A DNA stretch of 64,000 bases, taken from the NCBI GenBank assembly GCA_015206805.1, contig JADEZP010000001.1:219-64218 (forward strand), written 5' to 3'. Source of the stretch: Quinella sp. 1Q7 (GTDB lineage: Bacteria; Bacillota; Negativicutes; Selenomonadales; Selenomonadaceae). Both the position numbers and the translations under genes were made by a program. Shown here in pieces: positions 1 to 64,000 of this stretch. The notes under the pieces were generated by a model, which worked only from the letters and a program-made list of their open reading frames with translations, ran no database searches and was not told the DNA's origin. Positions within the stretch are counted from its first letter, which is position 1. Every line of letters begins with the position of its first letter.

Positions 1-152
1 CCTGTTCTAAACATCAAAGTTATCGAAACGTTCGTGCGACGCCGCAACCGTCACGGACAACGCGCCGACCGTCGCGCTTGCAAACGACTTTGACGGTTGA
101 TATACTTGCCGCAATTTGAACAACGCTTAATCGGGAGTGTGACGTTATACAA

Positions 153-1769
153 GTGAACAGCAAGAAATTATTTTGGGCGCGAATGTTGGCGTGCGTGCTT
201 ATGTGTCTGCTGACGCTGTGCACGGCGACAAACGATTGCGCGGCGCGAAAAAAAGTCGTGCGCGAAAAAATTTTGTACATTCCGCACGACAGCCGACCAA
301 TCGTCACGCGACAGACAACGGAGATCCTCGAAAAAGCGGGCATACAAATTGTCACGCCGCCCGAAGAACTTTTGGGCAACCGCGAAAATTTGGGCGACCC
401 CGATTTGCTGTGGGATTGGCTCAACAAAAACGCGACTAAAGATTTGACGGCGGCGGTCATTTCGTCGGACGCCCTGCTTTACGGCAGTTTGGTCGGCTCA
501 CGCAAGCACGACTTCGACGGCGACGAAATTTTGGCGCGGACGGATTTGTTCGCCGAATTCCGCCGCAAGCATAAAAAATTGCCGCTGTACGTCTTCGGCT
601 CGGTAATGCGCACGCCGCGCACGGGCTTGGCTTCGGGCTACGAAGAGCCGGATTATTATCACTACTACGGCACGAACATTTTCCGCCTGACGGAGCTCAT
701 GGATAAGCAGGAGCTCGAAGGTCTCACGCCGCGCGAAATTAAAGAATTCAACTTCCTGCAACGGCTCATTCCGACGCGGGCGATTGAGGACTGGATGGGT
801 CGGCGCGAAAAAAATTTTTCCGCCAACAAAAAACTAATCGACTGCGCCCGCAACAAGACGTTCGATTATCTCCTGCTCGGTCGCGACGACAACGCGCCCT
901 ACTCCCAAACGCACAACGAAGGTCGCAAACTTTCGGAATACGGTCGCAAGCTCGGCACCGACAAATATCTGACGACGGCGGGCATTGACGAAATCGGGCT
1001 TGTACTTTTGACGCGGGCGGCTAACGAACACGCCAAAACTTCCCCGAAAGTTTTCGTCAAGTACAACTGGGGACGCGGCGCGCGAACAATTCCGTCGTAT
1101 TCCGACGAGGCGATTGACACTTCGATTCACGCGGCAATTACGGCGGCGGGCGCGACACTTACCGACGACGAGGCGGACGCGGACTTTATACTTGCCGTCA
1201 ACACGAATCCTTCGGGCGAAACTTACGAGGCGGACAACGACATTAACGACGGCACTTCACGCGACGGCACGCGCTTTTTCGTCGACATGGTCGAAGATTA
1301 CGTCGACGCGGGGCGCAAAGTTATCGTCGCGGATGTCGCCTTCGCAAACGGCTCGGATAACGCGCTGATGGAGCAACTTCGCCGACGCGCTCTGCTGTTC
1401 AAGTTGAACGCTTACGGCGGCTGGAACACCCCGACGAATTCTTCGGGCTTCGCGTTGAGCACGGGACTGCTTACCCCGCGCATGAAGGACGCCGCCGTTG
1501 ACGAACTGCTTTTGCGCCGTTATCTGGACGATTGGGCTTATCAGGCGAACGTTCGCAAAATTGGCGCGGCTCAACTCAACTGGATTGCCGGTGACGGTCG
1601 CTACGAGTCGCTTGACGATAAACGCGACGCCGCCGCCGACAACTGCGCAATGTTGCTGAAGGCGTTCGCGCGCAGGAATTTGCCTGCCTTCACGGGCAAC
1701 GACGATATCCGCGTGCGCTTCCCGTGGAACCGTATGTTCGAGGCTGACATTTCAATCGGCAACAGATAA
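153..1769 (+). CDS. DUF4127-like protein with hydrophobic signal-like N-terminus
   Basis: 538-aa ORF with a GTG start. N-terminal hydrophobic segment MLACVLMCLLTLCTA. Motifs LYIPHDSRP, GRDDNAPYSQTH and AYGGWNTPTNSSGFAL resemble DUF4127 family proteins from memory. No search run. Confidence 0.5.
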   Translation: MNSKKLFWARMLACVLMCLLTLCTATNDCAARKKVVREKILYIPHDSRPIVTRQTTEILEKAGIQIVTPPEELLGNRENLGDPDLLWDWLNKNATKDLTAAVISSDALLYGSLVGSRKHDFDGDEILARTDLFAEFRRKHKKLPLYVFGSVMRTPRTGLASGYEEPDYYHYYGTNIFRLTELMDKQELEGLTPREIKEFNFLQRLIPTRAIEDWMGRREKNFSANKKLIDCARNKTFDYLLLGRDDNAPYSQTHNEGRKLSEYGRKLGTDKYLTTAGIDEIGLVLLTRAANEHAKTSPKVFVKYNWGRGARTIPSYSDEAIDTSIHAAITAAGATLTDDEADADFILAVNTNPSGETYEADNDINDGTSRDGTRFFVDMVEDYVDAGRKVIVADVAFANGSDNALMEQLRRRALLFKLNAYGGWNTPTNSSGFALSTGLLTPRMKDAAVDELLLRRYLDDWAYQANVRKIGAAQLNWIAGDGRYESLDDKRDAAADNCAMLLKAFARRNLPAFTGNDDIRVRFPWNRMFEADISIGNR

Positions 1770-1802: not shown

Positions 1803-1831
1803 TTGAAAATTTTTGTTCCACGCTGTAAAAT
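1803..1831 (+). promoter_or_regulatory. sigma70-like promoter (TTGAAA-17 nt-TAAAAT)
   Basis: TTGAAA at 1803-1808, exactly 17-nt spacer, TAAAAT at 1826-1831. Lies about 55 nt upstream of the 33-codon ORF. Confidence 0.55.
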
Positions 1832-2060: not shown

Positions 2061-2131
2061 TTTGCGCTTGGATACGCGATGGGTGATTTTCGTAGTTTCC
2101 TTTGTGCATTATATCAGCCGCGAAAAATTTT

Positions 2132-2794
2132 TCAAGTGCCGAAGTCGACGCTCGGCAAATTTTCCACAATCTCCAGCGTCCGCAAGCTGACCGTGATACT
2201 GCTCAATATCAAGTTCAAAATGTAGCGCGGATTGCCGTGCTCAATGCCCCACGCGTTCGCGTCGTTGACAATGCCGCTCGCCTTGTCGGTCTTGACGCGG
2301 TAACGGTCGATTATCCATTCAAGCGGACTGCGCCCGTTGACGACATAATCAAACGCTTGCGGCGGGATGTTGCGTATCTTGATGTGGCGGTTGTAAATCA
2401 GCGTCGTGCGGTCGTCCTTGGCAAAACGCAACTTGTCGACGCGGAAGTCGCCGTGCTCCGTGCCGATAACTTCAACGTCGGCGGGCGGCTGTGATTCGTA
2501 GTGCAAATGAATATTGGCAAGCTGACGACCTGCGCGGCTCAACTGCCAAAATTTTTCCGCGTCGGCAACCAAAATGATTCGCGTCAAAGATTTCTTCAGC
2601 TCGTTGGCAAAGCGTTCGCGGTAGCTCGGCAGGTGCAAAAATCCGTACACGTAATAGAACACGTCCTCGCGCTCAACGTCGTCGTAAAGTTCGCGGGCAC
2701 GTTGCAATACAAGACCGCTCACGCCGCTCAAGTCGCCGCCAACGAGATCCGCAACTTCCGCAAAACTTACGGCGGTGCGGCTTGCCTGCCTCAT
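2132..2794 (-). pseudogene. C-terminal remnant of a type ISP / Eco57I-like restriction-modification enzyme
   Basis: The last ~215 aa of the 2132..3292 minus ORF contain EDVFYYVYGFLHLPSYRERFANELKKSLTRI, AGRQLANIHLHYE, YVVNGRSPLEWIIDRYRVKTDKASGIVNDAN and NLILSSITVSLRTLEIV. This is the typical C-terminal domain of type ISP RM enzymes. The helicase, methylase and nuclease parts are absent. Upstream of ~2794 the ORF is only antisense read-through. Confidence 0.65.
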
Positions 2795-2824
2795 AAGGAC
2801 TTCGACCCCGCTGACTTCGATACC

Positions 2825-3442: not shown

Positions 3443-3460
3443 ACGTAAATCGTACCTCAC

Positions 3461-3486
3461 GCCGCTCCGAACGGGGCGGTTTTTTA
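3461..3486 (+). terminator. rho-independent terminator
   Basis: GCCGCTCC-GAAC-GGGGCGGT hairpin followed by TTTTTAT. Overlaps the stop of the minus-strand 36-aa ORF. Confidence 0.55.
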
Positions 3487-3594: not shown

Positions 3595-3607
3595 GGTGCC
3601 TCCTCAC

Positions 3608-4878: not shown

Positions 4879-4907
4879 TGCGTCGGCACTGGCGCGATTT
4901 TTTTCGC

Positions 4908-5018: not shown

Positions 5019-5099
5019 GGTGCCTCCAATAAAAAAAACGTCCTAAGGCGTTGTGATTGTATTTTTTGAAACAACATTAAACTCGAATGCACGTCAATA

Positions 5100-6118: not shown

Positions 6119-7249
6119 TCACGGCTTGAAACTTTTGATTATGGCGCAAATTTTTCGGACGTCGTCCGCAGTCAAACCGCCGTACATCGGCAAACTCAAG
6201 ACCTGCTGCCCGACAACATTGGCGACGGGCAAATTGGCTGGACTCGACGAATTCAACTGACGATAGCACGTGAACTCACTGCACAGCGGGTGAAAATATT
6301 TTCGGGCGTAAACGTTGTAATCGCGCAGTGCCGCACAGACATAATCCCGCGAACGTCCGAAAATTTTTTCGTCGAAGCGCACGACGTAATACTGATGATT
6401 CAGCTTGACATTCGCCGCGCACTTGGGCATGAGCGTCAAGCCGTCGACGCCCGAAAGTTCCTCGTCGTAAACCGCGTGCAGACGAATTCGCTTTTGACGT
6501 TCAGCCTCCACGTAGCCGAGCATGATTCGCCCGACAGCCGCGCGAATTTCGTCGAGCTTGCCGTTGATGCCGGGCATAACAACTTCGTCCTCGTTCTTGA
6601 TGCCGAAATTTTTCAGCAGGTCAATCCGTTGCTTGACGTGTTCGTCGTTCATGGTGAGCGCACCGCCTTCAAGCGTGTGATAAAGTTTCGTCGCGTGGAA
6701 GCTGAACATCGAAATATCGCCGAACGTGCCGATACCGCGCCCGCCAATTTCAACGCCGAACGCGTGCGCCGCGTCGTAAACAACCTTCAAGCCGTAGCGG
6801 TCGGCAACATCCCGAATCGTCGCAACGTCGCAGGGCGTGCCGAAGACGTGCACAGCCAAAATCGCGGTCGTATGCGGAGTTATCATCGACTCAATCTTTG
6901 CGGCGTCAATGTTCATTGTCTCGGCGTCAACGTCGCAAAAAATCGGAGTGATGTTGTTCCAGCTCAAGACGTGCGGCGTCGCGGCGAATGTGAACGGAGT
7001 CGTTATGACCTCGCCGCTCAAGCGCAAACTTTGGCACGCAACCATCAGCGCGATTGTCCCGTTGTTGAACAGCGATAAATTCGGCACGCGCAAAAATTCC
7101 GTGAGCTCGCGCTCAAGCATTGTGTGTTGCGGACCGTTGTTGGTGAGCCACTTCGCCGCCCAGATATCGCGCAATTTTTCCGTGACTTCCTCGATTGTCG
7201 GGAAGACGGGTCGCGTCACGTAAATTCTTTCGGTGAACGGTTCAAGCAT
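6119..7249 (-). CDS. DegT/DnrJ/EryC1/StrS family PLP-dependent sugar aminotransferase
   Basis: 376 aa. Typical family layout with NNGTIAL, DAAHAFG and the PLP-lysine context FSFHATKL. SD AGGAGG upstream of the ATG. Confidence 0.85.
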   Translation of the reverse strand: MLEPFTERIYVTRPVFPTIEEVTEKLRDIWAAKWLTNNGPQHTMLERELTEFLRVPNLSLFNNGTIALMVACQSLRLSGEVITTPFTFAATPHVLSWNNITPIFCDVDAETMNIDAAKIESMITPHTTAILAVHVFGTPCDVATIRDVADRYGLKVVYDAAHAFGVEIGGRGIGTFGDISMFSFHATKLYHTLEGGALTMNDEHVKQRIDLLKNFGIKNEDEVVMPGINGKLDEIRAAVGRIMLGYVEAERQKRIRLHAVYDEELSGVDGLTLMPKCAANVKLNHQYYVVRFDEKIFGRSRDYVCAALRDYNVYARKYFHPLCSEFTCYRQLNSSSPANLPVANVVGQQVLSLPMYGGLTADDVRKICAIIKSFKP

Positions 7250-7267: not shown

Positions 7268-7425
7268 AAAAAATTTTAGTTGGCGGCTGACGGGACGGCG
7301 TGCGAATTCTGCAAACTTCAGGCGTCGTCAGTCGATTTGTCGGCAAAATTTTTTAGTCGGCAACTGACGGGACGGCGGACGAATTCCGCAAACTTCAGGC
7401 GTCGTCAGTCGATTTGTCCGCAGAA
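7268..7425. repeat. tandem duplication, 2 x ~77 bp
   Basis: CTGACGGGACGGCG.GCGAATTC.GCAAACTTCAGGCGTCGTCAGTCGATTTGTC.GCA.AATTTT occurs at 7287 and 7364 (period 77). The second copy contains the last ~30 nt and stop of the M48 peptidase gene. Confidence 0.85.
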
Positions 7426-9185
7426 TTTTTGGCGGCGCGTTCAGCTTCAGCCTTGTGGAGTTTGTCGGCGGCTTTAGGGTCGATTTTTTCCAGATACGTC
7501 AGCGGGACGATGTGCGGATTTTTTTTCGACAGCACGTAGCACTTGCGATAACTTTCGGTCGCGGCGTCGACGTTGCCCTGCTCGTCGAAAATGTCGCCCT
7601 GCAAACGGTAAGCAATGGGATTTTTTTCATCGACGGCAAGTGCGCGATTGATATCCTCCAGCGCAAGGTCGACTTCGCCGCGCATGTGCCGAACGTCCGC
7701 GCGATTCAGGAAGTTGTAAAGATTTTTCGGATCCTGCGCGACGGCGGTATCAACGTCGGCAAGCGCACCGTCATAGTCGCCGCAAATCGCCTTCGCCCGC
7801 CCGCGAATCGCCAAGCACTCGGCAAGGTCGTCTTGATTCGCCGCACGCATCGCCCGTTCAATTTCGACAAGCGCAAGTTCGCCCTGCCCGTGGTCGTTGT
7901 AAATGTCGGCGTTGACGCGCAGTTGAGTAGCCGCCTTAGCTTTGGCGGTGTCGGCGTCGACACGAACTTTAGCCCAACGCTCCTCACGCGCCGCGTCAGC
8001 CTCATGAATCCGTTGACGCGTGCGGGGGCTTTCGTATTTGTAGGCAAGCTCAACCAGCGTCTGAATCTTGTCGCCCAGATTGTACAGCGCGGAAAGTTCG
8101 CGCACCTCGCGGTAGGCAAAATCGTCCGTCAAAAAATCCGTCTGATTGCCGACGCGCCGAAAGTTCCAGCCGTCAATCGTGTCGTGGTCGTGAAAAGCCT
8201 TCGACAGTCCGCCCGCGAAGTAGTAGGCGTTGACGGCGGCACTCGACGGGTCGTCGCCGATGTTGACGCTGAAAAAAATTTCTCGCCCGTCAATGAACAC
8301 GCGGTAAGCGCGGTCAGCCTTGCGCACGGTCACATGTCCGCCGCCGTAGTTCGTCATCATCTCAAGCAGTTTCGCCTCGCGACGGTCAGTTTCGGGGTGG
8401 TCGCTGAAAGTTTCGTCGCCGCTCACGTCGTGAATGTCGAATTCCAAAACGTCCGTCGTCTCGTAGCGCACGTAATAATCGAGCCGATTCATAGCCGCCG
8501 CGCCGCCGCCGGGATTGAAGCCCGCGCTTGTCATAATGTAAAAGCCGCCCTCGTCCGCCGCGTATTCGGCAGGCACGCCGATATTTTTGGCGATTGAGTA
8601 ATCGACCATTGCGGGAAGTTTGCCCCAATCGATGTGCGACGTGCGGCTGTTGTCATCGATGTTGGCGGCAAGAACCATTGCGCCGAGCTGTTGAGCGACT
8701 GCCTGCGCGTAACTTTTGGCGGAATGTTGCTCAATGCCGTGCGTCATTTCATGGGCAAGGACGGCGGCAAGTTGGTTTTCGTCGCAGTGAAGTCCGCGCA
8801 CAAGTCCGCGATTGACGCTGATATAATTCATGGGGTAGCAGGCGGCGTTGAACTTTTCGCTGTCGTTGACGCTCCAAACGAACGGCAGGGAATTCACGCG
8901 CAGTTCATATTGCCCGTCGCGAACGAGCCGCGTCATAACGGAATCGACAACCTCAACGTCGCGCTTGTTGGCGTCAACGCCGTTGTGCTCCATATCTTGC
9001 TTGCGAATCGCCATTTGCGCGTTGACGTTGTTGCCGAGCTTGAGCATTTGCCGCAATGTCGACTGATACGCCGCCAAAACTCCGAGAGCCTCCGCCGCGA
9101 CAGCCCACGCGTCCGCCGCAAAAACTTGCACGGGATTGAGCAGCGTCGCAACCGTCAGCAACATCACGATAAAAAATTTTTTCAT
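7395..9185 (-). CDS. secreted M48-family zinc metallopeptidase with C-terminal TPR repeats
   Basis: Signal peptide MKKFFIVMLLTVATLLNPVQVFA. HEMTH zinc motif (LAHEMTHGIEQH). C-terminal TPR-like repeats. The ORF track begins 4 codons earlier at a TTG; the ATG at 9185 is preferred. Confidence 0.8.
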   Translation of the reverse strand: MKKFFIVMLLTVATLLNPVQVFAADAWAVAAEALGVLAAYQSTLRQMLKLGNNVNAQMAIRKQDMEHNGVDANKRDVEVVDSVMTRLVRDGQYELRVNSLPFVWSVNDSEKFNAACYPMNYISVNRGLVRGLHCDENQLAAVLAHEMTHGIEQHSAKSYAQAVAQQLGAMVLAANIDDNSRTSHIDWGKLPAMVDYSIAKNIGVPAEYAADEGGFYIMTSAGFNPGGGAAAMNRLDYYVRYETTDVLEFDIHDVSGDETFSDHPETDRREAKLLEMMTNYGGGHVTVRKADRAYRVFIDGREIFFSVNIGDDPSSAAVNAYYFAGGLSKAFHDHDTIDGWNFRRVGNQTDFLTDDFAYREVRELSALYNLGDKIQTLVELAYKYESPRTRQRIHEADAAREERWAKVRVDADTAKAKAATQLRVNADIYNDHGQGELALVEIERAMRAANQDDLAECLAIRGRAKAICGDYDGALADVDTAVAQDPKNLYNFLNRADVRHMRGEVDLALEDINRALAVDEKNPIAYRLQGDIFDEQGNVDAATESYRKCYVLSKKNPHIVPLTYLEKIDPKAADKLHKAEAERAAKNSADKSTDDA

Positions 9186-9243
9186 GTCAATCACCAAGCG
9201 AAGTATATCACGAACGCCGCGCCCGACAAAATTTTTCAGCGCA

Positions 9244-10603: not shown

Positions 10604-11362
10604 TCACATGACCATGCCGCCGTCAACCGACAGAACTTGACCGGTAATGTACGCCGCCTGATCCGATACCAAGAACGCCACTGCATTGGCAACGTCTTCG
10701 GGAGTGCCCATCCTGCCCGCAGGTATCTCTTGCAACATAACTTCCTTGACCTTTTCGCTTAGCGCGGCAGTCATATCGGTGTTGATAAGTCCGGGCGCGA
10801 CCGCGTTGACCGTGACGCCACGCGAAGCAAGTTCTCTTGCCGCCGTCTTCGTGAAGCCGATAATGCCCGCCTTTGCCGCCGCGTAGTTTGCTTGGCTGAT
10901 GTTGCCTTTGAGCCCGACGACGCTGGACATATTGACGATACGACCGCCGCGTTGTTTCATCATCAGCCGCGTGACGGCTTTGGTGCAGTTGAAGACGCCC
11001 TTCAAGTTTGTGGCGATAACTCTGTCGAAGTCGTCTTCACTCATCTTGAGCAGGAGATTGTCGCGGGTGATGCCGGCGTTGTTAATCAGAATGTCCAATC
11101 GACCCCACGCGTCGACGACCTGCTTGACAAGCGAGTTGACTGTCTCGAAATTCGACACGTCGCCTTGAACGAGCATTGCCGTGCCGCCCGCCGATTCGAT
11201 TTCGTTGCGGACCGATTCGGCTTTGGAACTGTTGCTTGCGAAATTCAACGCGACCTTTGCTCCGTCGAATGCAAGCCGCAGTGCAATGGCTCGACCGATA
11301 CCGCGTGAAGCACCCGTCACGAACGCAACTTTGCCCGCCAAAATTTTTTCCGTCGCACTCAT
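10604..11362 (-). CDS. fabG: 3-oxoacyl-[ACP] reductase
   Basis: SDR with TGASRGIGRAIA, NNAG and YAAAKAG motifs. Start moved to the ATG at 11362 (MSATEKIL) behind a GGGAGG SD; the ORF track extends 28 codons upstream. Confidence 0.9.
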   Translation of the reverse strand: MSATEKILAGKVAFVTGASRGIGRAIALRLAFDGAKVALNFASNSSKAESVRNEIESAGGTAMLVQGDVSNFETVNSLVKQVVDAWGRLDILINNAGITRDNLLLKMSEDDFDRVIATNLKGVFNCTKAVTRLMMKQRGGRIVNMSSVVGLKGNISQANYAAAKAGIIGFTKTAARELASRGVTVNAVAPGLINTDMTAALSEKVKEVMLQEIPAGRMGTPEDVANAVAFLVSDQAAYITGQVLSVDGGMVM

Positions 11363-11513
11363 TACAACCTTTCGCCTCCCGTTTGCAGAATATAACACAA
11401 AGATTTTCGCTTGTCTACAATTTTCGGTTGAGAGCTTGACGCGCAATTAGACTGCGCCCGCAGTATGTGCTATCATTGGCGCATTAATTTTATCTGCGCG
11501 GGAGAAAATTTTT

Positions 11514-12935
11514 ATGAGCATCGTCGACAACATCAAGCGCAAATGCAACGGCTTCGGAATTTCCACGAAAATAACGTTCGCTTACAGTGCGTGCTTCATA
11601 ATACTGTTGCTGATAATCAACGCGGCAATGTGGTTCGGCGTAATGGACGCGCTGTACAGTCCCGCCGAAAAAACTATCCGATTCAGCATGAAACGCGTTG
11701 AGCAAGCCCTTGACGCGCTGGAGACGAATTACGACGGCTACAGCCCGCTTGCCTTTCGCGGCGCACTTGTCGCGGGAGTGGTTTTGCGCGTCGTCGACGA
11801 GAGCGGCGAAATTTTAATCGACACCGACGAAACTTATCCGTCAATCGAAATGTTCAACGCGGCAATTTTGCTCGACCCGCCGATTTTTGCCGACCGCGAA
11901 TTTGAAATTGCACGACTCGGCTCCGCGCTGGTTTATTGCGCCAAAATGAATTACGTGCGCGAAGGACAAAACTTCACGCTGTATTTTTTCCGCACGATAA
12001 CTTCCGAACTGACACTGCTGGACAATTTGGCGAAACTGCTTATCGGGCTTGACGTGCTGGGAATTTTAATCGCGCTCGTCGTCGGACGTTTCGTCAGCCG
12101 AAAAGTTTTGACTCCGATAAAAACCATGAACGAACTTGCCCGTGAAATCGCCTTCGAGAAAATGGGCGGACGAATTCCCCTGCGCACGGCGGACGACGAA
12201 CTTAACGAACTTGCCAAAACGCTCAACGAGATGCTTGACCGACTGCAGGGCGGCATAAAAAAGCAACAGAAATTTGTTTCCGACGCATCGCACGAACTGC
12301 GCACGCCCGCCGCCGTCATCAAAGGCTACATCGAATTCATTGAGAGCTACGGCACGGCGGACGAGGCTTTGCTCAAGGAGAATCTTAAAGTTATCGGCTC
12401 CGAAGCCAAAAATATGCAGGACTTGCTGGAAAATCTTTTGTTCCTGTCGCGCACGGATCAGAATCGTCAGCGGCTCAACAAAAAAATTCTCGACCTTGAC
12501 GACATTGTCGGCGACGTTATGAGCAAAATGCGCACCGTCGTCAAGACGCACAATGTCGAACTCGTCAGCAACCCGCCCGCGAAAATTTTCGGCGACGAAA
12601 CGACGATTCGGCAGATGATTAGAATTTTTCTTGACAACGCCGTCAAATACACGCCCGCAGGCGGCAGTATCAGCGTCGCGTCGAAAATCGTCGGCGGGAA
12701 AATTTTGTTGAGCATTTCGGATTCGGGCATCGGTATCGCGCCGGAAAATCGCCCAAAAATTTTCGACCGCTTTTTCCGAATCGACAGCGAAGATTTGGTC
12801 AGTGAGGCGAACGGCAGCGGATTGGGCTTATCAATCGCGAAATGGATTGCCGACAGCCACGGTATCACAATCGACGTCGACAGCGCGCTCGGCAAGGGCA
12901 CGACCTTCACGCTGAATATCCCGCTGAATTCGTGA
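11514..12935 (+). CDS. sensor histidine kinase (2 TM, HAMP, HisKA, HATPase_c); no adjacent response regulator
   Basis: 473 aa. H-box SDASHELRTP. N/G boxes DNAVKYT, DSGIGI and GSGLGLSI. GGGAG SD. Confidence 0.9.
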   Translation: MSIVDNIKRKCNGFGISTKITFAYSACFIILLLIINAAMWFGVMDALYSPAEKTIRFSMKRVEQALDALETNYDGYSPLAFRGALVAGVVLRVVDESGEILIDTDETYPSIEMFNAAILLDPPIFADREFEIARLGSALVYCAKMNYVREGQNFTLYFFRTITSELTLLDNLAKLLIGLDVLGILIALVVGRFVSRKVLTPIKTMNELAREIAFEKMGGRIPLRTADDELNELAKTLNEMLDRLQGGIKKQQKFVSDASHELRTPAAVIKGYIEFIESYGTADEALLKENLKVIGSEAKNMQDLLENLLFLSRTDQNRQRLNKKILDLDDIVGDVMSKMRTVVKTHNVELVSNPPAKIFGDETTIRQMIRIFLDNAVKYTPAGGSISVASKIVGGKILLSISDSGIGIAPENRPKIFDRFFRIDSEDLVSEANGSGLGLSIAKWIADSHGITIDVDSALGKGTTFTLNIPLNS

Positions 12936-12950: not shown

Positions 12951-13567
12951 TTGCTTGAAATATTTTTGTCGCCGCGCTGAAAAGTTCACCATTGCTCGCG
13001 CCCGCGTGGAAAATTTTTGATAAGTCGTTGACGCGCACATCGGAGGCGGCTTACTCGACGATTGACGCCGCAGAATTTTTCTGTAAGCGATAATGTCGGG
13101 GACGCGGGCTTGACGAGCGGTTTGAGCGGCGTCGATATGACAAGCGACAATATCAAGGATTTGCAGAACAGCATTGCAAAACTTTTGTCGGGCGTGGAGT
13201 CGGCGTTTGTCACGTCGCTCGTCGGAATTTTTTTCGGGCTCGTTTACAGCGTCGCGCACCACAAATTGATTGTCGCGCTCCACGATAAAATTGCTCAACT
13301 GACTGACGCGCTCGACGAAAAATTTCCGCGCCGTTCCGCCGAAGATTGGCTGTCGAAAAATTTTTCCGAGGCTCAAACGCAATCGGCGGAATTTTTTCGG
13401 ACAGGGTTGGTGCACAAATGGATCGATTTTCAGCCGCGCTCGACAGATTTTCCGATACCATTGCTCAAAAGTTGTCGGACGCGCAAAAAATTTTCGACAC
13501 CACAATTGCGACCATGAAAGCCGCCGCTGACGCCAACGCCGCGCAAGTTACACGTATCGTCGAAAAT
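12951..13567 (+). pseudogene. MotA/ExbB-like (ZorA-like) remnant, multiply frame-disrupted and far too short
   Basis: AAGGAG SD directly after the kinase stop. Only the last MotA/ExbB-type TM helix (GVESAFVTSLVGIFFGLVYSV) and a short coiled-coil (AQMDRFSAALDRFSDTIAQKL...) remain. The reading frame changes 3>2>3>2 at T5/T6 runs (12963-67, 13076-80, 13392-97). Confidence 0.5.
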
Positions 13568-14266: not shown

Positions 14267-15422
14267 GCCTGCGTGAATCGATTGACGACATGCGCGGCGT
14301 TGCGAAACGTTTGGAGGCGGCGACGTTTGCTCCCGACATGAACGCGCTGAAAATTTTCGTCGACAAGCTCGGCACCTTCGGCAAGCCCGTCGAAGTGAAT
14401 CCGGAGGACTTGAAAATTTTGGCGGCGAAATTTCTGCGCGGCGAACGGAATTTTTCGCGGCGTGAGCTGAAAAATTTGCCGTACATAATTTACGACGACG
14501 CGATTAATTTTGACGGCGCGAAAGAAATTCTGCGGCTTATGGATTTTACGTCGGCAAGTCATTTGCGGCGCGTGGTGAGCGTTTACCTTACGAATTACGA
14601 CGACTCGAACAAAACCGAACTTTTGCGGCGGAGTCTGAACGTTCTGCGCGGCGTCGACAATGTGCGGTTGCGGAAAATTTTTTCGGCGCGTGAAGAAATT
14701 TTTGGCGACAATCGCTTTGCGAACATGACGCGACTTTTCGCGCGGACAATGAGCGTCAACGGCGGCGCATTCGGAGAACTCGGCTTGGGCGACTACTTCA
14801 AGACCGCGAAGTTCATTCAAGCCGCGCTGACGAATTTTTTCCGCGCCGACGTGCCGCTTGAGGTGCAGTTCAAAATTCCGGACGAACTCGACGCCGAATA
14901 CGACACCTACCGAAATATTTTCGCCGCCGTTGCCGACTCGCTGATTCTGACCGTCGCCCGCGCAGGTGTCGGCAAGCGGAAATGTCTGACAATTTTTTAT
15001 AATCGGCTGGGCGATCCGCGTTTCGGCAACGGACGTTTTGCGTGGAATGAAGTTTCGGCGCGGGCTCGCGAAATTTTTCAGCGTTGGCTTGCCGAAGACG
15101 ACTTGAGGATTTTTTTTGAAATTATCCGCGGCTCGGCAGTCAGGCGCGGAAAATTGCCCGTCGCCTTGAAGACAAGCGCACTCACGGCGCGTTGCTCGGC
15201 AAATTGGACGCGGACAAAAGCGGCTTCCTTTTCCAAATCGGCGGCTTTATTTTCGCCGAATGGAGCCACGACGGCGCGTTGAGAGTTTATCCCGCGCGGC
15301 GCGTGCAAAATTGGAGCAATTTTTACAAGTCGGACATGATGGGCGTGCCCGTCGATTATCGGCAAGTTCATATCGGCGCGTGGCAAGCTAAAGTTCGCGC
15401 GTGGATTCAACGGAATTGTTGA
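14263..15422 (+). pseudogene. EH_Signature-like (ZorC-like) protein, frameshifted near 15121-15150
   Basis: ATGA overlap with the preceding gene. LGDPRFG..W..VSARAREIFQRWLAEDDLRIFFEII in frame 1 continues in frame 3 as ...FLFQIGGFIFAEWSHDGALRVY...WQAKVRAWI. Family assignment is from memory of ZorC/EH-signature proteins. Confidence 0.5.
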
Positions 15423-24107: not shown

Positions 24108-24322
24108 CGAATACACCTCCCGACGCGAATTATACCGGCGTGCAAAAAAATTTTCCGGTCACCGGCAGTGCCGAGCACCGTTGACTTGATGTCGCGGCAA
24201 CGTGACGTTGCATCCAATGTTCGCGCCGCGACATTTCGACGCTCGTAAGTAATCGCCGCGCTTTAATGTCGCGAAAAAATTTTTGCCTGTCGTTGACTGC
24301 GGCAGATTTTTTTTTTGCGCTG

Positions 24323-24331: not shown

Positions 24332-24363
24332 CAATGAAATTTTTGTGCAGAGGAGCGCATTCA

Positions 24364-31487: not shown

Positions 31488-31555
31488 TCACGCGGAAAAA
31501 TTTTTATTATAATTCCGCCAACAAGAATCGTTTTTCGGGAAGTAGCGCGATTGAA

Positions 31556-39754: not shown

Positions 39755-39758
39755 AGTG

Positions 39759-41849: not shown

Positions 41850-42127
41850 AGTCGCGCAAATTATATTCCATATAACTTTTTAACTGCCGCCCTATTGTAC
41901 CCCGCCGGTTTACGCGCTATTATTTTCAGGATTTATTGGGCGTTTGGTGGACGTTCAATCTGTTCGGCGACAAAAAATTCTGTCGGGCACAATTCAAATG
42001 TCGGGGGGCATTCAAAATCGGTACTTTGTGGCGAACTGCTTGTCGAGGGGAATTTCCGGCGCAGTTCGTTGTTTTATTTTGAGCCGAAAAATTTTTTATA
42101 CCACATACGAGAAGGGAGTTCTGTTAC

Positions 42128-48100: not shown

Positions 48101-51100
48101 ATCGGCGTCGAAAGCTTCAGCGGTCCCGCGACAATCAGCGGTGCGCTCGACGGCGTTTATATCAACGACGACACGTTGGCGATTGACATCACGGGCGACA
48201 GCGACAGCCTGTTGAGTTACATGCTCAACGGCACGGCGACACTCGGTAGCGTCGGCGGCGATAACGTCACGATTAACGGCGTGGCGGGCGCAAGCGTCGT
48301 TCAAATCACGGCGTCGGGTATCTACGACTTCCAACTCGGCGCAAGCGAAATTTTCACGCTGGCGGGCGGCGATTCGTCGGTCTTCTTCGGGCTCGACGGC
48401 ACGACGGTCAAATCGATTGCCGACTTCGACAAGGGCGACAGCGTGACGGGCAACTTCGCCAACGGCATAACGGTCAGCGGCGGCAGTGCGACGTCTTATA
48501 TCAAAGTCACGGGCGACGACACGATTCAAGTTGTCCGCGACGACATCCAGATTAACAAGCTGTCGAACGGCGCGACGATTGATGCGGCGGACAGTGTCAG
48601 CATTGCGTGGACGGACGCGTTCAGCTCAAGTTCAATCGCGATTCAGGACGCGGACGGTTACCGCTTCACGGTCAACGGCTTCGATTCGACGGGCGTGGAA
48701 TATTTGCTCAACGACAGCGGTCACGTTATCGGCGTGAGCAGTCTCGATACGGGCGTCACGTTGACGGGCAGCTTGAGCGTGCTCAATTCGATTAACGGCG
48801 CGACATTCGATGTCAAGGGCGACGATACGTTGGCGGTTGTCGGCGCGTCGACGGGCGTCAGCAAAATTTTTGAGTTGAGCGACGGCGCGACGGTCACATC
48901 TGCGGCGGGCGCGAGTCAAGCTTTGACGGATTCGACGGGCAATTTCTACTTCGGCAGTCAGAGCTTCACGGTCGACGGCGACAGCGCAATAACCTTCGGA
49001 CTCAACAACAGCGCCGTCAACACAATCAGCGAACTTAGCGGCTCCGTGACGAGCTTCAACTTCGCGGACATCACGTCGACAAACGGCAAGAGCTTTGCGA
49101 TTTCGGGCGACGCCGAAGATTTGATGATCGTCGGCAACGCGGCGGCGAGCGGTCTTGCGCAAATTGACAAGGTCGGCGCGGGCGAAGGTCAAACAGTCAC
49201 GATAACCAATGCGGGCGGCGCGACGCTCATTTCGACGGACAAGGCGGGCGGCTTCAGCTTCGTGTCGAGCGAGCAGAATTTCACGTTGCAGAGCGCGGGC
49301 GACAGCGTCATAAACTTTGCGCTTGACGCGACCGAAACGGTCACGGCAATCGGCGGCGTCGGTGACACGGAAACGATTATCGGCGTGTTCGACGCGGTCG
49401 ATTCGGTCAACGGCGTGGCGTTCGATATCGTCGGCGACAGCGGCACATTGTCGATTGTCGGTCGCGACGACTTGAGCTCAATCAGCAAGATTATGGGCGT
49501 CGGCAATGCGGGCGGCGGCAACGTCACGATTAACAATGTCGGCGGCGCGGACGAATTGCTTACGAACGCGGCGGGAACGTTCGTGTTCACGGGCGCAAGT
49601 TTCCTGACGAATGACGACAGTTTGACGTTTGCACTTGGCGGTGACAGCGCGACGGCGATAACCGGGCTCGACAACGGCAAATCGATTCAAAGTTCGTTCG
49701 CGGGCGTGAGCTCCGTCAACGGCAAAAATTTCAGCATTAACGACAGCGACAGCTCAATCGTGATTTTCGGCGGCGCGGCGAGCTCAATCAGCAAGATTGC
49801 GGGCGTGACGGGTAACGCGACGATTGCCAACGCGGGCGGCGCGAGCCAAATCATCACGGACAGCGTCGGCACGTTCCAATTCCAGAATCAAACGCTGACG
49901 ACGGGCAGCGACAATGTCGTTACGTTCGGTTTGAGCGGCGACATCGTCACGACGATTGACGGTTTGAGCGGCAACGTCGCGGGTCAATTCGACAGCGTGA
50001 CGGCGGTCAACGGTCACAGCTTCGTAGTTTTGGGCGACGCGGGCGACTTGACGGTTTACGGCGCGGCGAACGAAAGTTCGGTTGTCGGACTGGACGGCGT
50101 CGGCTCAAGTGGCAACGTCACGATTCAATATGTCGGCGGCGCGAGCTACGTCGGCACGGACAACGTCGGCACGTTCCAATTCGGCGGCGGACAAAGCTTC
50201 ACGGTCGACGGCGACGCCTCAATCAAATTCATAACCGCGACGGACGACGCGCCCGCAAGCGTGCTGGGCGTGACGGACTTCAACGGCGACGCGACGATTA
50301 CCGGCAAACTCAACGACATTTCAATCAACGGCGGCTCGGTCAAGATTGACATTGACGGCGACGCGGACGACATCTTCAGCTACGCGCTCAATTCGGCGGG
50401 CTCGACGCTCGGCGCGGTCGGCGGCTCAAGTGTGACGATTCGCGGCGCGGACGGTGCTGATGTCGTTCAAGTCACGCAAGACGGCGCGTATCAATTCAGC
50501 ATAACGGGCGCGGGTCAGGCGTTCACGGTCAGCGGCGACGGCGACGGCGTCAACTTCGCGCTGGTCAACAACACCGTTCAATCCGTGAGCGACCTCGACG
50601 AAAATGCGACACTTCGCGGCAATTTGAACGACCTGTCGGCGGTCAACGGTCAATCGTTCGCTGTGACGGGCGATAATAATTTCGGCGTTGTCGGCGGCGC
50701 GAGTGCACAGACGCTCAGCAAAATTTTCGGCTTGAGCGGCACGGTTACTGTCAATCGTTCGGGCGGCGCGACACAAATCGGCGCGGACGGCGACGGTCAA
50801 TTTGCCTTCAACTTTGCGGCGGGCGAAAACTTTACGCTCGGCGGCAACGGTGCGGAGCAGACTTGGTTCACGTTCGGCGCAAGCTTCGTTGAGGCGATTG
50901 ACGGCGTCGACAACGGCGAAACCGTCACGGGCAATTTCAGCCACGGAATTGACATCAACGGCGGCAACTCGATTCAAGTCACGGGCGACGACAAAATCAG
51001 CGTGGCAAGCGTGACGGGCGCACTCGAAATCGCTAACCTCGGCGGCGGCGCGACGGTTGCAGTTGCGGGCGGCGTGAGCTTGGCGCGGACGGAAACTCTC

Positions 51101-54100: not shown

Positions 54101-57100
54101 GATGCGAACGTTGTGCAGGTCGTCGAAGACGGCAACTATAATTTCTTCGGCGGGCAGAGCTTCAAGTTCGCGGGAGAAAGTCTTGACTTCGGCTTGAGCG
54201 GCGACAGTGTGACGTCGATTGACGGGCTTGATGTCGGCGAAACCGTGACGGGCGACTTCAACAATTCAATCACAATTAACGATAATAATGTTCAAGTTGC
54301 GGACGACAGCGCGGTCGACGTGACCAACGACGGCTCCAAACTTGAGTTGCGCGGACTGACGACGGGCGCGAACGTTTTGCAGGCGGACGGCGTCAGCAGT
54401 GCGTTCACGGACGGCGAAGGCAACTTCGAGTTCGTCAACGGCGAGTTCACGGTCAGCGGCGACAGCGACGGCGTCGAGTTCAAGCTTGACGGCGCGGCAA
54501 ATGTTGTCGGCGTCGACGGGCTGGATTCGGGCGCGACGCTCCGCGGCGACATCAACGGCTTGACGGTCAACGGACAACTGGTCGACATTCGCGGCGACGC
54601 GGACGGCTTCGGCGTGGTCGGCGGCACGAGCGGCGTCAGCCAAATCATTGAAATGAGCGAGCCGGCGACGGTGCACAATGCGGGCGGCGCGACTGAACTG
54701 CTCACGGATTCGGACGGGACTTTCTGGTTCGAGGCGGGCGGCGTCAGTTACCTCATCGAGGGCGACAGCTCCGTTACGTTTATTTCGGACGGCGTGAGTG
54801 TTGCGAGCGGCGTCGAAAATCTGACCGGCTGGATTGAGGCGGACGCGGCTGTTTTCGCGGACGGATTCAGCGTGAACGGTCAGACGGTGCAAATTGTCGG
54901 CGACTCGGGAACTTTGCGAATTCACGGCACGGGCGACGCGATTGACACGATTGCGGGCGTGACGGGCGATGTCACGATTCAGAGCACGGGCGGCGCGAAT
55001 TTCATCATCACCGACGCGCAAGGAACGTTCGAGTTCGCGAATCAGACGTTCACGACGGGCGGCGACGACACGGTCACGTTTGAACTTGACGGCGACACGG
55101 TCACGGCAATCAGCGACCTCAACGGTTACGTCGCGAGCAACAATTTCGACGGCGTCACGGTCAACGGCAAGAGCTTCGACATTGTCGGCGACGCGGGCGA
55201 TATGATGGTCATCGGCAACGACTACGAAAACGGCATTACAGAAATTGCGGACGTCGGCTCAAGTGGCGGCGTGACGATTAACAACGTCGGCGGCGCGGGC
55301 AAAGTTGTCAGCGACACTGAAGGCGTCTTCGACTTCGCGGACAATGCGGCGGCGTTCACGGTCAGCGGCGACAGCTCCGTCGACTTCGTTATGGCGGCGG
55401 GAGCTTCGGCTTCGGTTGTCGGCGTCGAAAGCTTCGACAGTCCCGCGACGATTGCAGGCGCGCTCGACGGAATTTATATCAACGGCGCGAGCTTGGCGAT
55501 TGAAATTGACGGCGACAGCGACAACATCTTCAGCTACGCGGTTGACGGCTCAACGACGCTCGGCATGGTCGGCGGCGCGAACGTGACGATTAACGGCGCG
55601 GCTGATGCGGACGTTGTGCAGGTCGTCGAGGACGGCAATTACAATTTCTTCGGCGCGCAAAAATATACGCTTGCCACCGATAACGATTCGGACGGCGTAA
55701 ACTTCGTGCTCGACGGCACAACCGTCACCGCGATTGAAAGCTTCGACAAGGGCGACAGCATTATCGGCGACTTCACGAACGAAATAACCGTAAGCGGCGG
55801 CGACGAATCGTCTTATATCAAAGTCACGGGCGACACGGAAATTTTGGTTGAGCACGACGACATTTTGATTAAGAAACTTTCGGACGGCGCGACGATTGAT
55901 GCGGCGGGCGGCGTCAGCATTGCGTGGACGGACGCGCTTACAGGTGCGGCACTTGCGATTCAGGACGCGGACGGGCACCGCTTCACGGTCAACGGCTTCG
56001 ATTCGACGGGCGTGGAATATTTGCTCAACGGCAGCGGTCACGTTATCGGCGTGAGCAGTCTCGATACGGACGTCACGTTGACGGGCAGCTTGAGCGTTTT
56101 AAATTCGATTAACGGCGCGACATTCGATGTCAAGGGCGACGATACGTTGGCGGTTGTCGGCGCGTCGACGGGCGTCAGCAAAATTTTTGAGCTTAGCGGC
56201 GGCGCGACGGTCACATCTGCGGCGGGCGCGAGTCAAGCTTTGACGGATTCGACGGGCAATTTCTACTTCGGCGGGCAAAGCTTCACGGTCGGCGGCGACA
56301 GCGCGATAACGTTCGGCTTGAACAACAGCACCGTCAACACAATCAGCGAACTTAGCGGCTCCGTGACGAGCTTCAAATTCGCGGACATCACGTCGACAAA
56401 CGGCAAGTCGTTCGCGATTTCGGGCGACGCTGATGATTTGATGGTCGTCGGCAATGCGGCGGCGAGCGGTCTTGCGCAAATTGACAAGGTCGGCGCGGGC
56501 GACGGTCAAACGGTCACGATAACCAATGCGGGCGGCGCGACGTTCATTACAACCGATAAGGCGGGCGGCTTCAGCTTCGTGTCGAGCGAGCAGAATTTCA
56601 CGTTGCAGAGCGCGGGCGACAGCGTCATAAACTTTGCGCTGGACGCGACCGAAACGGTCACGGCGATTGGCGGCGTCGGCGGCACGGAAACGATTATCGG
56701 CGTGTTCGACGCGGTCGATTCGGTCAACGGCGTGGCGTTCGACATCGTCGGCGACAGCGGCACATTGTCGATTGTCGGTCGCGACGGCTTGAGCTCAATC
56801 AGCAAGATTATGGACGTCGGCAACGCGGGCGGCGGCAACGTCACGATTAACAACGTCGGCGGCGCGGACGAATTGCTTACGAACGCGGCGGGAACGTTTG
56901 TGTTCAAGGGCGCAAGTTTCCTGACGGACGACAACGCTTTGACGTTTGCACTTGCCAACGACAATGCGACGGCGATAACCGGTCTCGACAACGGCAAATC
57001 GATTCAAAGTTCGTTCGCGGGCGTGAGCTCCGTCAACGGCAAAAATTTCACCGTTAACGACGGCGACAGCTCAATCGTGATTTTCGGCGGCGCGGCGAGC

Positions 57101-60100
57101 TCAATCAGTCGGATTGCGGGCGTGACGGGTAACGCGACAATTTACAACGCGGGCGGCGCGAGCCAAATTATCACGGACGCGGCGGGCGTGTTCCAATTCC
57201 CGAATCAAACGCTGACGACGGGTGGCGACGCGGTTGTTACGTTCGGTTTGAGCGGCTACATCGTCACGACGATTGACGGTTTGAGCGGCAGCGTCGCGGG
57301 ACAATTCGACAGCGTGACGGCGGTCAACGGTCACAGCTTCGTGATTCTCGGCGACGCGGGCGATATGACGGTTTACGGCGCGGCGAACGAAAGTTCGGTT
57401 GTCGGACTGGACGGCGTCGGCAGTGCGGGCAACGTCACGATTCAATATGTCGGCGGCGCAAGTTACGTCGGCACGGACAACGTCGGCACGTTCCAATTCG
57501 GCGGCGGACAAAGCTTCACGGTCGACGGCGACGCCTCAATCAAATTCATCACGGCGACGGACGACGCTCCCGCAAGCGTTTTGGGCGTGACTGACTTTGG
57601 CAACGACGCGACGATAACCGGCAAGCTCAACGACATTTCAATCAACGGCGGCTCGGTCAAAATCGACATTGACGGCGACACGGACGACATCTTCAGCTAC
57701 GCGCTCAACTCGACGGGCTCGACGCTCGGCGCGGTCGGCGGCTCAAGTGTGACGATTCGCGGCGCGGACGGTGCAAACGTCGTTCAAGTCACGCAAGACG
57801 GCGCGTATCAGTTCAGCATAACGGGCGCGGGTCAGGCGTTCACGGTCAGCAACGACACTGACGGCGTCAACTTCGCGCTGGTCAACAACACCGTTCAATC
57901 CGCAAGCGACCTCGACGACGGCGCGACACTTCGCGGCAACTTGAACGACCTCGCGGCGGTCAACGGTCAATCCTTCGCCGTGACGGGCGACGATAATTTC
58001 GGCGTGGTCGGCGGCGCAAGTGCGCAAACTTTGAGCAAAATTTTCGACTTGAGCGGCACGGTTGAAGTTGCTCAATCGGGCGGCGCGACACAAATCGGCG
58101 CGGACGGCGACGGTCAATTTGCATTCAATTTCGCGGCGGGCGAAAACTTTACGCTCGGCGGCAACAGCTCTGCGGATACTTGGTTTACGTTCGGCGCAAG
58201 CTTCGTCACGGGTATCAGCGGCGTCGACGCGGGCGAAACCGTCACGGGCAATTTCAGCCACGGAATTGACATCAACGGCGGCAACTCGATTAAAGTCACG
58301 GGCGACGACAATATCAGCGTGGCAAGCGTGACGGGCGCGCTCGAAATCGCTGACCTCGGCGGCGGCGCGACGGTTGCAGTTGCGGGCGGCGTGAGCCTTG
58401 CTCGAACGGAAACTCTCGGCGGCACAAACGCGGCGTTTACGTTCGTTGATGAGACTTTCAGCGTGAGCGGCGACGCTGACGGCGTCGACTTCGTGCTTGA
58501 CGGCAACACGGTTGTTAAGGAAATCAACGACCTCGACGCGGGCGCGACACTTCGCGGCGGCTTGAGCAGCCTCGATTCCGTCAACGGCGCGACATTCGAC
58601 GTCGGCGGCGATAATAATTTCGGCGTTATCGGCGGCACGGGCGCAAGCGGCATTCGCGCGATAATCGACCTGTCGAACAATGCGACTGTTTCCAATGCGG
58701 GCGGCGCGACGTTGGCTGTCACGGACGAGCAGGGCACGTTTACATTCAACGGCGACACGTTCACGGTTGAGGGCGACAGCTCGGTTAACTTTATTTTGAA
58801 CAGCGCGGGCAGTGTCGTTGCAGTTGAAGACCTCGACGCGGGCGCGACACTTCGCGGTGACTTGACGGGCTTGAGCTCAATCAACGGCATATCGTTTGCA
58901 GTCGGCGGCGATACGAGTTTGGCGGTTGTCGGCGCGGCAAGCGGTATCAGCCGAATCCTCGACTTCAGCGACGGCGCGACACTCACCAATTCGGGCGGCG
59001 CAAGTCAGGCGGTCACGGATACTGTCAGCGCGTTCACATTCGACGGCAAGACCTTCACAATCGCGGGCGACAGCTCCGTTACGTTCGGATTGAGCGGCGT
59101 TGCGGTCACGGGCGTTACAAACTTTAACGCACCCGCGACAATCACCGGTCAAATCAGCGGGCTCAAGATTAACAACGACACTACGAAAATTCAAATCAGC
59201 GGCGACACCGACAGCATCTTCAGCTACGCGATTGACAGTGCAAGCGGCGCGACACTCGGCGCAGTCGGCGGCAGCTCGACGGTCGTAATTAACCACGCGG
59301 CGGGCGCGAACGTCGTGCAAGTCATCAGCGGCGGCAACTATCAGTTTGGAACGGCGTCGGCATTCACGCTTGCCGGCACGAGTGCGGCGATTGACTTCAT
59401 GGTCAACAGCTTGAGCGTTACGGCAGTCGGCGGACTCAACGATACCGAAACGCTCACGGGCTACGGCTTCAACGACGTTGTTTCAATCAACGGCGCGAAG
59501 TTCGACATCAAGGGCGACGCGGGCGATATGATGGTCGTCGGCAACACGGGCGCAAACGGCTTAACGGTTATCGGCAATGTCGGCTCAAGTGACGGCGTGA
59601 CGATTAACAACGTCGGCAACGCGTCGAAGGTCAGCACCGATATGGAAGGCGTCTTCGACTTCGCGAACCCTGCGGCGGCGTTCACGGTCAGCGGCGACAC
59701 GAACGTCGACTTCATCACGGCGGCTGGTCAATCGGCTTCTGTTATCGGCGTCGAAAACTTCGGCGGCGTGGCGACGATTGCAGGCGCGCTCGACGGAATT
59801 TATATCAACGGCGCGAGCTTGGCGATTGAAATTGACGGCGACAGCGACAGCCTGTTGAGTTACGCGGTTGACGGCTCAACGACGCTCGGCATGGTCGGCG
59901 GCGCGAACGTCACGATTAACGGCGCGGCTGATGCGGACGTCGTGCAGGTCGTCGAAGACGGTCAGTACAATTTCTTCGGCGGGCAGTCGTTCAAGTTTGC
60001 GGGAGAAAGCCTCGACTTCGGTTTGAGCGGCGACACGGTCACGGCGATTGACGGGCTCGATGTCGGCGAAACCGTGACGGGCGACTTCAACAATTCAATC

Positions 60101-64000: not shown

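Follow-up and report, generated by a model that had tools for sequence, protein, structure and literature searches.

An oriented A-run/T-run block is highly over-represented in a clade of rumen Selenomonadaceae that includes Quinella

Short DNA words that are hyper-abundant and resist drift are rare, and the uptake signal sequences (USS) of Pasteurellaceae and DNA uptake sequences (DUS) of Neisseriaceae, the highly iterated palindrome HIP1, Chi and the FtsK-orienting polar sequences (KOPS) each revealed or conceal a genome-wide DNA-reading machine. HIP1 (GCGATCGC) occurs in cyanobacteria at 300–2700 copies per Mb, with observed/expected ratios (O/E) of 55–228 (PMC5861425, PMC4390886). Prokaryotes also display a general over-representation of A-tracts, for which a link to nucleoid proteins via the narrow minor groove has been proposed (PMC2843746, PMC2879501). 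Here we have analyzed a 64-kb stretch of a single organism, Quinella sp. 1Q7 (contig JADEZP010000001.1; GC content 55.1%), hereafter the window, in which runs of A are fused directly to runs of T, forming a graded family A4–6T4–6 devoid of a TpA step, of which the octamer AAAATTTT (A4T4) is the most common member.

Abundance and anatomy of the block

The window contains 47 exact copies of AAAATTTT, corresponding to 0.73 per kb or about 730 per Mb. Exactly 21 of these lie at or below position 15000, the minimum number that a preliminary description of the sequence had counted there by eye, and the example positions which it listed are correct to within about 20 nucleotides (nt). The reverse arrangement, TTTTAAAA (T4A4), is present as a single copy at 31897, inside an AT-rich intergenic patch, in agreement with the near-absence that had been claimed outside one such patch, and equal enrichment of the two words is thus not what is observed (47 versus 1). 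Shorter words behave likewise, with AAATTT outnumbering TTTAAA by 110 to 12 and AATT outnumbering TTAA by 510 to 163, and enrichment rises with run length from 3-fold for AATT to 13-fold for AAATTT and 115-fold for A4T4. AAATTT is the most over-represented 6-mer palindrome of the window (13.5-fold) and TTTAAA stands at expectation; AAAATTTT is over-represented, and not under-represented as a palindrome subject to restriction-site avoidance would be.

The 115-fold excess refers to an order-0 composition null, under which 0.41 copies of AAAATTTT are expected. Markov nulls of increasing order predict 4.2±2.0 (order 1), 8.0±2.8 (order 3, with a maximum of 16 over 200 simulations) and 27±5 copies (order 5), and the maximal-order expectation of 46.3 equals the observed count; as the latter is uninformative for nested words, an n-by-m independence test and a gap test were used instead. 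Within coding sequences (CDS), delimited by 27 approximate gene models made for this analysis, 36 copies compare with 12.0±2.9 when synonymous codons are shuffled within each gene and with 2.0±1.3 when codons are permuted, the observed counts exceeding the order-3 Markov, synonymous-shuffle and codon-permutation nulls with z = 8–26. A5T3 and A3T5 are each also above the synonymous-shuffle expectation. The massive excess initially proposed thus survives both Markov and codon-aware nulls. Occurrence on both coding strands and in intergenic DNA is equally borne out, the signal being strongest in the latter (5.1 kb, 46% GC), with 11 copies against 0.15 expected and an A4T4:T4A4 ratio of 11:1 where stop codons have no part.

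The independence and gap tests locate the excess at the junction of the two runs. Nine AnTm words fill 209 of the 564 positions occupied by A/T-only octamers in the window, with counts from A8 through to T8 of 3, 10, 25, 29, 47, 39, 26, 21 and 9. A-runs of at least four are joined to T-runs of at least four 2–6 times more often than independence of run lengths allows, and there are 47 such pairs at gap 0 versus 0–5 at each gap from 1 to 15. No flank consensus beyond run extension is found among the 47 window sites or among 448 sites pooled from the clade described below, nor is there a symmetric flank signal or extended motif, the flanks being at background by position −7; conserved sequence past the core, of the kind seen in repetitive extragenic palindromes (REP) or miniature inverted-repeat transposable elements (MITE), is absent from these sites. 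Immediately next to the 47 copies a 5′ T occurs in none and a 3′ A in two, and the G/C flanking initially noted holds once the A/T run is taken at its full length. One-mismatch neighbours of the octamer, transition neighbours included, are at or above expectation, with no depletion indicative of a repair sink.

In respect to helical arrangement, the tracts share with phased A-tract curvature a length of at least 4 and the lack of TpA, but not the 10–11 bp spacing: no such phasing of AnTm tracts is found in the window or in the clade, and the sister group and Paenibacillus do show a 10–11 bp peak. Spacing between sites is near-random, with no regular or preferred distance (coefficient of variation 1.24 versus 1.08). 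Neither of the two regularities whose examination had been proposed, helical phasing and kb-scale regularity, is thus found, and therefore nothing supports classic phased curvature.

Distribution among relatives and imprint on proteins

We have compared the window with the homologues of GlyS from 80 species, each represented by one locus of 3–22 kb around glyS. In the GlyS tree the species carrying about 1 site per kb constitute one clade with the window inside it, and the signature is therefore that of a monophyletic group of rumen Selenomonadaceae, including named Quinella metagenome-assembled genomes (MAGs). The median AAAATTTT density over 27 clade loci is 1.04 per kb, about 1000 per Mb. 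An exact look-up of the window GlyS in public assemblies gave no match; its closest homologue is 99% identical, and the nearest named ones belong to Quinella sp. 2Q5 and 1Q5, whose contigs have 0.83 sites per kb (15 versus 0.09 expected, 167-fold) and 0.38 sites per kb, respectively. The signature is absent (0–0.2 per kb) from the loci of oral Selenomonas, Mitsuokella, Phascolarctobacterium and Paenibacillus, as well as from the megaplasmid pSRC1 of S. ruminantium TAM6421, a candidate for a cultured carrier (0.06 per kb over 50 kb). The bias is thus shared by the Quinella clade and not by the sister genera sampled. In the literature on the motif, Quinella and Selenomonas we found no account of such a signature, nor is it mentioned in the Quinella genome paper.

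Density of A4T4 within the clade is nearly independent of GC content (34–57%), with a log-log slope of 2.75±1.1 versus the value of 8 expected from composition, while T4A4 tracks composition with a slope of about 7. A few nested lineages are poor in blocks, namely L031 and L042 and, to a lesser degree, L004, L033 and L014. L031 is nested in the clade despite its low density; it was considered as a very close relative devoid of the signature, and this was rejected, since it matches at 82% on the best segment and about 74% over the full length, like others.

A distinct picture emerges for plain A-runs. Runs of at least four A occur at 4.7 per kb in the window, 10.9 in other clade species, 3.6 in the sister Selenomonas/Mitsuokella group and 5.3 in Paenibacillus. 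The proportion of these fused directly to at least four T amounts to 15.7% in the window and 9.3% in other clade species, versus 1.3% in Selenomonas/Mitsuokella, 1.8% in Paenibacillus and 0.4–2.7% over all non-clade groups plus L031 and L042. Unfused A-runs are not commoner than in the sister group, and homopolymers of G and C are depleted; generic homopolymer extension was rejected on these grounds. The lineage-specific feature is the oriented A-run/T-run junction and not A/T-run richness. In the pooled clade loci L002–L046, T-runs of at least four starting 5–8 bp past an A-run of at least four are depleted (8–16 cases, where gaps of at least 10 give a baseline near 45) and gaps of 0–2 are enriched, the depletion resembling an exclusion zone around the blocks.

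The blocks have left an imprint on codons and proteins. The claim that they occur in all three codon phases is accurate in that each phase is represented but overstated, as the 36 coding sites are divided 28:4:4 and 78% fall in one phase, these 28 reading AAA ATT TTN (K-I-F/L). Of the lysine codons, 84% are AAA where AA or AT follows and about 45% where the next codon starts with G or C. The tripeptide K-I-[FL] has an O/E of 5.1 in the window, 2.35 in the high-density clade, 2.0 in the low-density clade members and 1.0 in the sister group. In the same order, the motif encodes 0.69, 0.67, 0.22 and 0.06 of its occurrences; the O/E of the reversed tripeptide is about 1. More generally, the block-encoding tripeptides K-I-F/L and K/E-N-F are 2–5 times over-represented, only in the Quinella lineage, which indicates that the proteins follow the DNA and not the reverse. 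Together with the intergenic excess, this upholds the earlier view that the pressure acts at the level of DNA and not of protein.

Conservation at orthologous positions is evident in glyS, where the site at 27637..27645 is the same 8-mer at orthologous codons in 19 clade species, GGA AAA ATT TTR (G-K-I-L-S), while sister genera have GGC CGC ATC GTG (G-R-I-V-S) and the low-density L031 retains K-I-L coded as AAG ATT CTA. When two high-density species are aligned, 51% of A4T4 sites are found unchanged at the corresponding position, three times the rate of control 8-mers, other A/T-only words included (16–20%), the pairwise comparisons being phylogenetically non-independent; between high- and low-density species this advantage is gone (13% versus 14.5%). 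The proteins of the low-density lineages are in this sense the fossil of a DNA signal that is no longer maintained.

Sites and genes along the window

The 47 sites are given here as window coordinates of the full A-run/T-run blocks, with no strand assigned. The blocks do continue through comEC and recur in the giant gene, as previously described, with five and six copies respectively, but their density is uneven and not similar throughout: no AAAATTTT is present in the interval 31.5–41.5 kb (RTX gene and carAB), and in the 22-kb giant open reading frame (ORF) there are only six, all at the same place in paralogous repeat units.

At the left end, the DUF4127 gene holds A6T4 at 265..274 (phase 0, K-I-L) and A7T5 at 808..819 (phase 1, K-N-F). 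Two intergenic blocks follow, A4T5 between convergent gene ends (1806..1814) and A5T5 adjoining the stop of the gene at 2132–3292 (−) (2123..2132). The latter gene encodes the C-terminal portion of a Type ISP restriction enzyme, with A4T5 at 2548..2556 (phase 2, E-K-F), and opens a region of probable foreign or degraded DNA (2132–5877). Next in this region is a low-GC stretch, with GC of 0.42–0.53 at third codon positions (GC3), which includes a phage Mu F-like ORF (3829–4878), whose protein gave one distant hit among viral contigs; the low-GC part is the most AT-rich of the window, yet contains no AAAATTTT.

Further along, A4T6 lies in the DegT aminotransferase gene (6360..6369; phase 0, K-I-F), and the intergenic A6T4 at 7268..7277 and A4T6 at 7345..7354 are about 20 and 100 nt, respectively, upstream of the start at 7249 (−). 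Codons 5–8 of the M48 peptidase gene contain A6T6 (9171..9182; phase 2, K-K-F-F), and A4T5 at 9228..9236 is intergenic, 31 nt upstream of the start at 9197 (−). The SDR reductase gene has A4T6 at 11340..11349 (phase 0, K-I-L), and A4T5 at 11505..11513 is itself the Shine-Dalgarno-to-ATG spacer, from GGGAG to the ATG at 11514. Three phase 0 blocks are found in the histidine kinase gene, A4T4 at 12582..12589 (K-I-F), A4T4 at 12699..12706 (K-I-L) and A5T4 at 12755..12763 (K-I-F), and the intergenic A4T5 at 13010..13018 lies 75 nt past the kinase stop.

A degraded Zorya-like defence locus spans 13062–15282 and comprises a MotA/ExbB-like fragment (13062–13517), an OmpA-domain ORF (13346–14266) and an EH_Signature ORF (14263–15282). 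Its remnant carries A5T5 at 13356..13365 (OmpA ORF, phase 2) and A6T4 at 13485..13494 (phase 0, K-I-F), and the EH_Signature gene has A4T4 at 14350..14357 (K-I-F), A4T4 at 14413..14420 (K-I-L) and A4T6 at 14674..14683 (K-I-F), all in phase 0. The MotA/ExbB-like and OmpA ORFs overlap in different frames, the frame slipping most plausibly at the T6 run of AATTTTTT at 13390, which could reflect a homopolymer sequencing error. Of the frameshifts in accessory genes initially attributed to A/T runs this one is plausible, while that in the RTX gene, near 32270, lies off an A/T run.

The comEC gene contains, in phase 0, A4T4 at 15898..15905 (K-I-L), A4T7 at 16927..16937 (K-I-F-F), A4T5 at 17308..17316 (K-I-F) and A4T4 at 17818..17825 (K-I-F), and in phase 1 A6T4 at 17364..17373 (K-N-F). 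In the interval 21562–24116 (−) a 704-aa ORF combines a C5 cytosine methylase domain (aa 4–325) with an HpaII restriction endonuclease domain (aa 335–662), representing either a real fusion or a lost stop codon. This M.HpaII/R.HpaII ORF includes A5T4 at 23233..23241 (phase 0, K-I-F) and A4T4 at 23539..23546 (phase 1, E-N-F), and is followed by the gene of a Vsr mismatch endonuclease (23673–24116). In the divergent intergenic region, A7T4 at 24144..24154 is about 30 nt upstream of the vsr start and A6T5 at 24274..24284 is 50 nt upstream of the start of kdtA-lpxK, an 841-aa ORF (24334–26859, +) with Kdo transferase (KdtA/WaaA) and lipid A 4′-kinase (LpxK) domains, which has A5T4 at 24732..24740 (K-I-F) and at 25041..25049 (K-I-L), both in phase 0.

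Besides the A4T5 already described at 27637..27645, glyS (26928–29177, −) has two further blocks, also in phase 0: A4T6 at 27160..27169 (K-I-L), where most relatives have AAAAGTTTT (V for I), and A4T4 at 29161..29168 in codons 4–6 (K-I-L). The 749-aa GlyS of the window bears an insertion of about 64 aa at residues ~190–254, absent from all 80 genome relatives (680–695 aa) and common only to the closest metagenomic homologues (743–752 aa); many relatives have a fused GlyQ-GlyS of about 990 aa. The SDF symporter gene contains A4T4 in codons 6–8 (30197..30204; phase 2), and the intergenic A5T5 at 31496..31505 is 64 nt past its stop. The 3.9-kb RTX (HemolysinCabind) gene at 31556–35930, split into two overlapping frames near 32270, has no AAAATTTT, and neither do carB and carA (36527–40850, −; 4.3 kb), whose GC3 is ordinary.

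In the comFC-like gene A5T4 is found at 41583..41591 (phase 1, K-N-F) and A6T4 at 41701..41710 (K-I-L) and 41785..41794 (K-I-F), both in phase 0, and the intergenic A5T6 at 42087..42097 is about 30 nt upstream of the giant ORF. The latter (42128–64000+, +; 59–60% GC) exceeds 7,290 codons and runs off the window, and its first 1,200 residues have no Pfam match. It has A4T4 at 42758..42765 (phase 0, K-I-F) and paralogous copies in the repeat units at 48863..48871 (A4T5, S-K-I-F-E), 50720..50727 (A4T4), 56180..56188 (A4T5), 58037..58044 (A4T4) and 63506..63513 (A4T4); its long repeats dominate the top 8-mers of the window (CGGCGGCG and similar). Several 6-mer palindromes have no copies despite 9–28 expected by composition: CCCGGG (0/28), AGGCCT, AGCGCT, CGTACG and CCTAGG (0 of 18.6 each), as well as CTATAG, AGTACT and ACTAGT. 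This suggests heavy restriction avoidance; GTCGAC is 5-fold over-represented.

Possible origins of the signature

From a statistical viewpoint the A4T4 block is closely matched to HIP1 in abundance, over-representation, conservation and sporadic loss. Both are octameric palindromes that number hundreds to thousands per Mb and occur inside as well as outside coding sequences, and the over-representation in the window and in Quinella sp. 2Q5 is within the 15–300-fold range that characterizes HIP1. Both are conserved between genomes above control motifs and extend over a whole clade, with sporadic low-frequency lineages nested among high ones, and both are of unassigned function. However, HIP1 is a fixed G/C-rich 8-mer and A4T4 is A/T-only and length-graded, its carriers belong to another phylum (Bacillota, Negativicutes), and the window holds no cognate methylase candidate. 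With general A-tracts the block shares A/T runs devoid of TpA and the distinction of a bent A4T4 from a straight T4A4, but the widespread phenomenon concerns homopurine A-tracts with 10–11 bp phasing, whereas in the window plain A-runs are of ordinary density, the tracts are unphased and only A-runs that pass directly into T-runs show the lineage-specific excess.

Orientation, cooperativity over 8–10 bp, dyad symmetry and presence in coding and non-coding DNA, along with GC-independent density, positional conservation and loss in nested lineages, together point to a lineage-specific agent that recognizes duplex DNA. The same features speak against an origin in composition, codon usage or generic run extension, and against selection on peptides. 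A4T4 has a bend of about 10 degrees, directed into the minor groove, while T4A4 is straight (PMC2879501), and symmetric AnTn tracts exceed both asymmetric tracts and a G/C-rich control sequence in stiffness (PMC4066768), for which reason we favour, tentatively and at somewhat less than an even chance, a DNA-shape element that is maintained by selection and read by an abundant factor. We infer that selection, and not biased repair, would be at work, that shape would be what is read and that the reader would be a protein. A lineage-specific pressure on duplex DNA would keep the blocks at about 1 per kb in the Quinella group, recruiting synonymous sites and conservative replacements (R to K, V to I/L) and holding the blocks at the same positions across species; relaxed in a few nested lineages, it would let them decay there via synonymous changes. 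The reader may be an abundant and probably dimeric DNA-binding factor, for example a nucleoid protein, acting site by site and not via helically phased curvature. Symmetric AnTn tracts have a narrow minor groove, and dimers of Fis-type nucleoid proteins select their sites by how wide the minor groove is at an A/T centre bordered by G/C. A symmetric, G/C-flanked A/T block would suit such a readout, but Fis is proteobacterial and the blocks have no fixed G/C positions at ±7.

A number of observations weigh against selection for such an element. No protein that reads the blocks is known, nor any modification or phenotype, in an organism that has not been cultured; the lack of helical phasing and of regular spacing gives no pointer to an architectural array. 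The native housekeeping genes carAB have no sites, nor does A3+T3+ in them rise above the level given by shuffling their synonymous codons, as it does in glyS, comEC and most of the genes nearby. Part of the signal is located at gene boundaries (2–4 per kb), where AT-rich sequence is expected anyway. Moreover, the comparison relies on one locus per relative, on our own gene models and on non-independent pairs, with MAGs of uncertain purity, and positional conservation could also result from a biased, sequence-specific repair that restores the motif where it has changed.

The latter possibility corresponds to a neutral molecular drive, in which context-specific mutation bias or short-patch repair would turn near-matches into AnTn and correct departures, leaving functionless blocks. 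A graded family without flank consensus, the strong context dependence of lysine codons, and disappearance in nested lineages as if by gene loss are all in line with it, and a biased-repair origin has long been considered for HIP1 (PMC5861425, PMC4390886). Vsr/Dcm very-short-patch repair illustrates that a sequence-specific repair enzyme can inflate a word genome-wide, and a vsr gene is present in the window, but it accompanies a CCGG-type C5 methylase, and an A/T-only word has no cytosine to deaminate. We consider this drive rather unlikely, given that single-mismatch neighbours are not depleted as in a repair sink, that the normal frequency of unfused A- and T-runs and the depletion of G and C runs exclude generic run extension, that the cooperativity over 8–10 bp exceeds usual neighbour effects on mutation, and that density is almost GC-independent. 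More remote still is a simple side effect of composition, codon usage or the avoidance of TpA or of restriction sites, which we find hardly credible: dinucleotide bias by itself does lift the AAAATTTT expectation eleven-fold, rho(TA) is 0.53 in the window and many palindromes are avoided there, but the nulls exceeded with z = 8–26 already contradict it, TTTAAA is not depleted, and the sister group is similar in TA avoidance and A-run density, yet lacks the blocks.

By analogy with USS and DUS, competence machinery preferring AnTn DNA could have spread the blocks by uptake and recombination, and several features are reminiscent of this: about 1 site per kb on both strands and inside genes, distortion of the proteome through tripeptides, comEC and a comFC-like gene in the window, decay in nested lineages paralleling that of USS after competence loss in H. 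ducreyi (PMC1626085), and no sites in the RTX gene or in the low-GC stretch with the Mu F-like ORF, both of which are probable foreign DNA. Known uptake sequences, however, are discrete, asymmetric and information-rich 9–12-mers with defined flanks and demonstrated uptake bias, and a symmetric, degenerate, low-information A4–6T4–6 family showing no discrete motif over the 448 pooled sites is a poor fit. As AT-rich rumen genomes carry the block by chance, discrimination would be poor; the core operon carAB has no sites, competence was never demonstrated in the uncultured Quinella lineage, and the sister genera sampled lack the excess, their com genes being outside the comparison. We regard this as improbable. 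A similarly small chance may be given to a HIP1-like link with an orphan methylase that would recognize the AATT/AAATTT core, the sites being kept for a methyl-directed process; the HIP1 parallels and the rank of AAATTT among palindromes would agree, but enrichment climbs with run length instead of stopping at the core, and the sole methylase of the window is the CCGG-type C5 enzyme with its Vsr, no adenine methylase candidate being present there. RAATTY, the class of Campylobacter CtsM and ApoI, was rejected as specificity, as it is not favoured as a class. Finally, AAAAUUUU could act at the RNA level, keeping mRNA unstructured or binding S1 or an RNase, mainly at translation starts. Pooled clade density is indeed 2–2.7 per kb between positions −180 and +60 relative to start codons, the first CDS decile is enriched 2.6-fold and one block is a Shine-Dalgarno-to-ATG spacer, but about two thirds of the sites are in gene bodies (~0.7 per kb), density peaks directly past stop codons (4.2 per kb in the following 30 nt), the sense strand is enriched in A5T3 and A3T5 alike, symmetry and direct run fusion have no RNA rationale, and sister genera share the same translational needs without the blocks. 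This makes such a role very unlikely.

Quinella, an emblematic rumen genus that has so far escaped cultivation, is associated with low-methane sheep, and its giant cells have about 60 times the volume of E. coli. The signature is useful in itself, being an A/T-only word in a 55% GC genome that is strong enough to alter proteins. It separates native from foreign DNA in Quinella MAGs and could aid binning, and as homopolymer-prone sites exceed their expected density about 10-fold, caution is advised for long-read assemblies. The nested lineages without the signature make the responsible gene findable by phylogenetic profiling. There is also an outside chance that the blocks are the footprint of a dedicated sequence- or shape-reading system that arose at the base of the Quinella lineage and was lost in a few descendants, either a chromosome-organizing A-tract code or a third independent uptake or self-recognition signal. 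If so, a HIP- or USS-like system would for the first time be known from a diderm Firmicute, with the low-density lineages serving as natural knockouts in the search for the reader gene.

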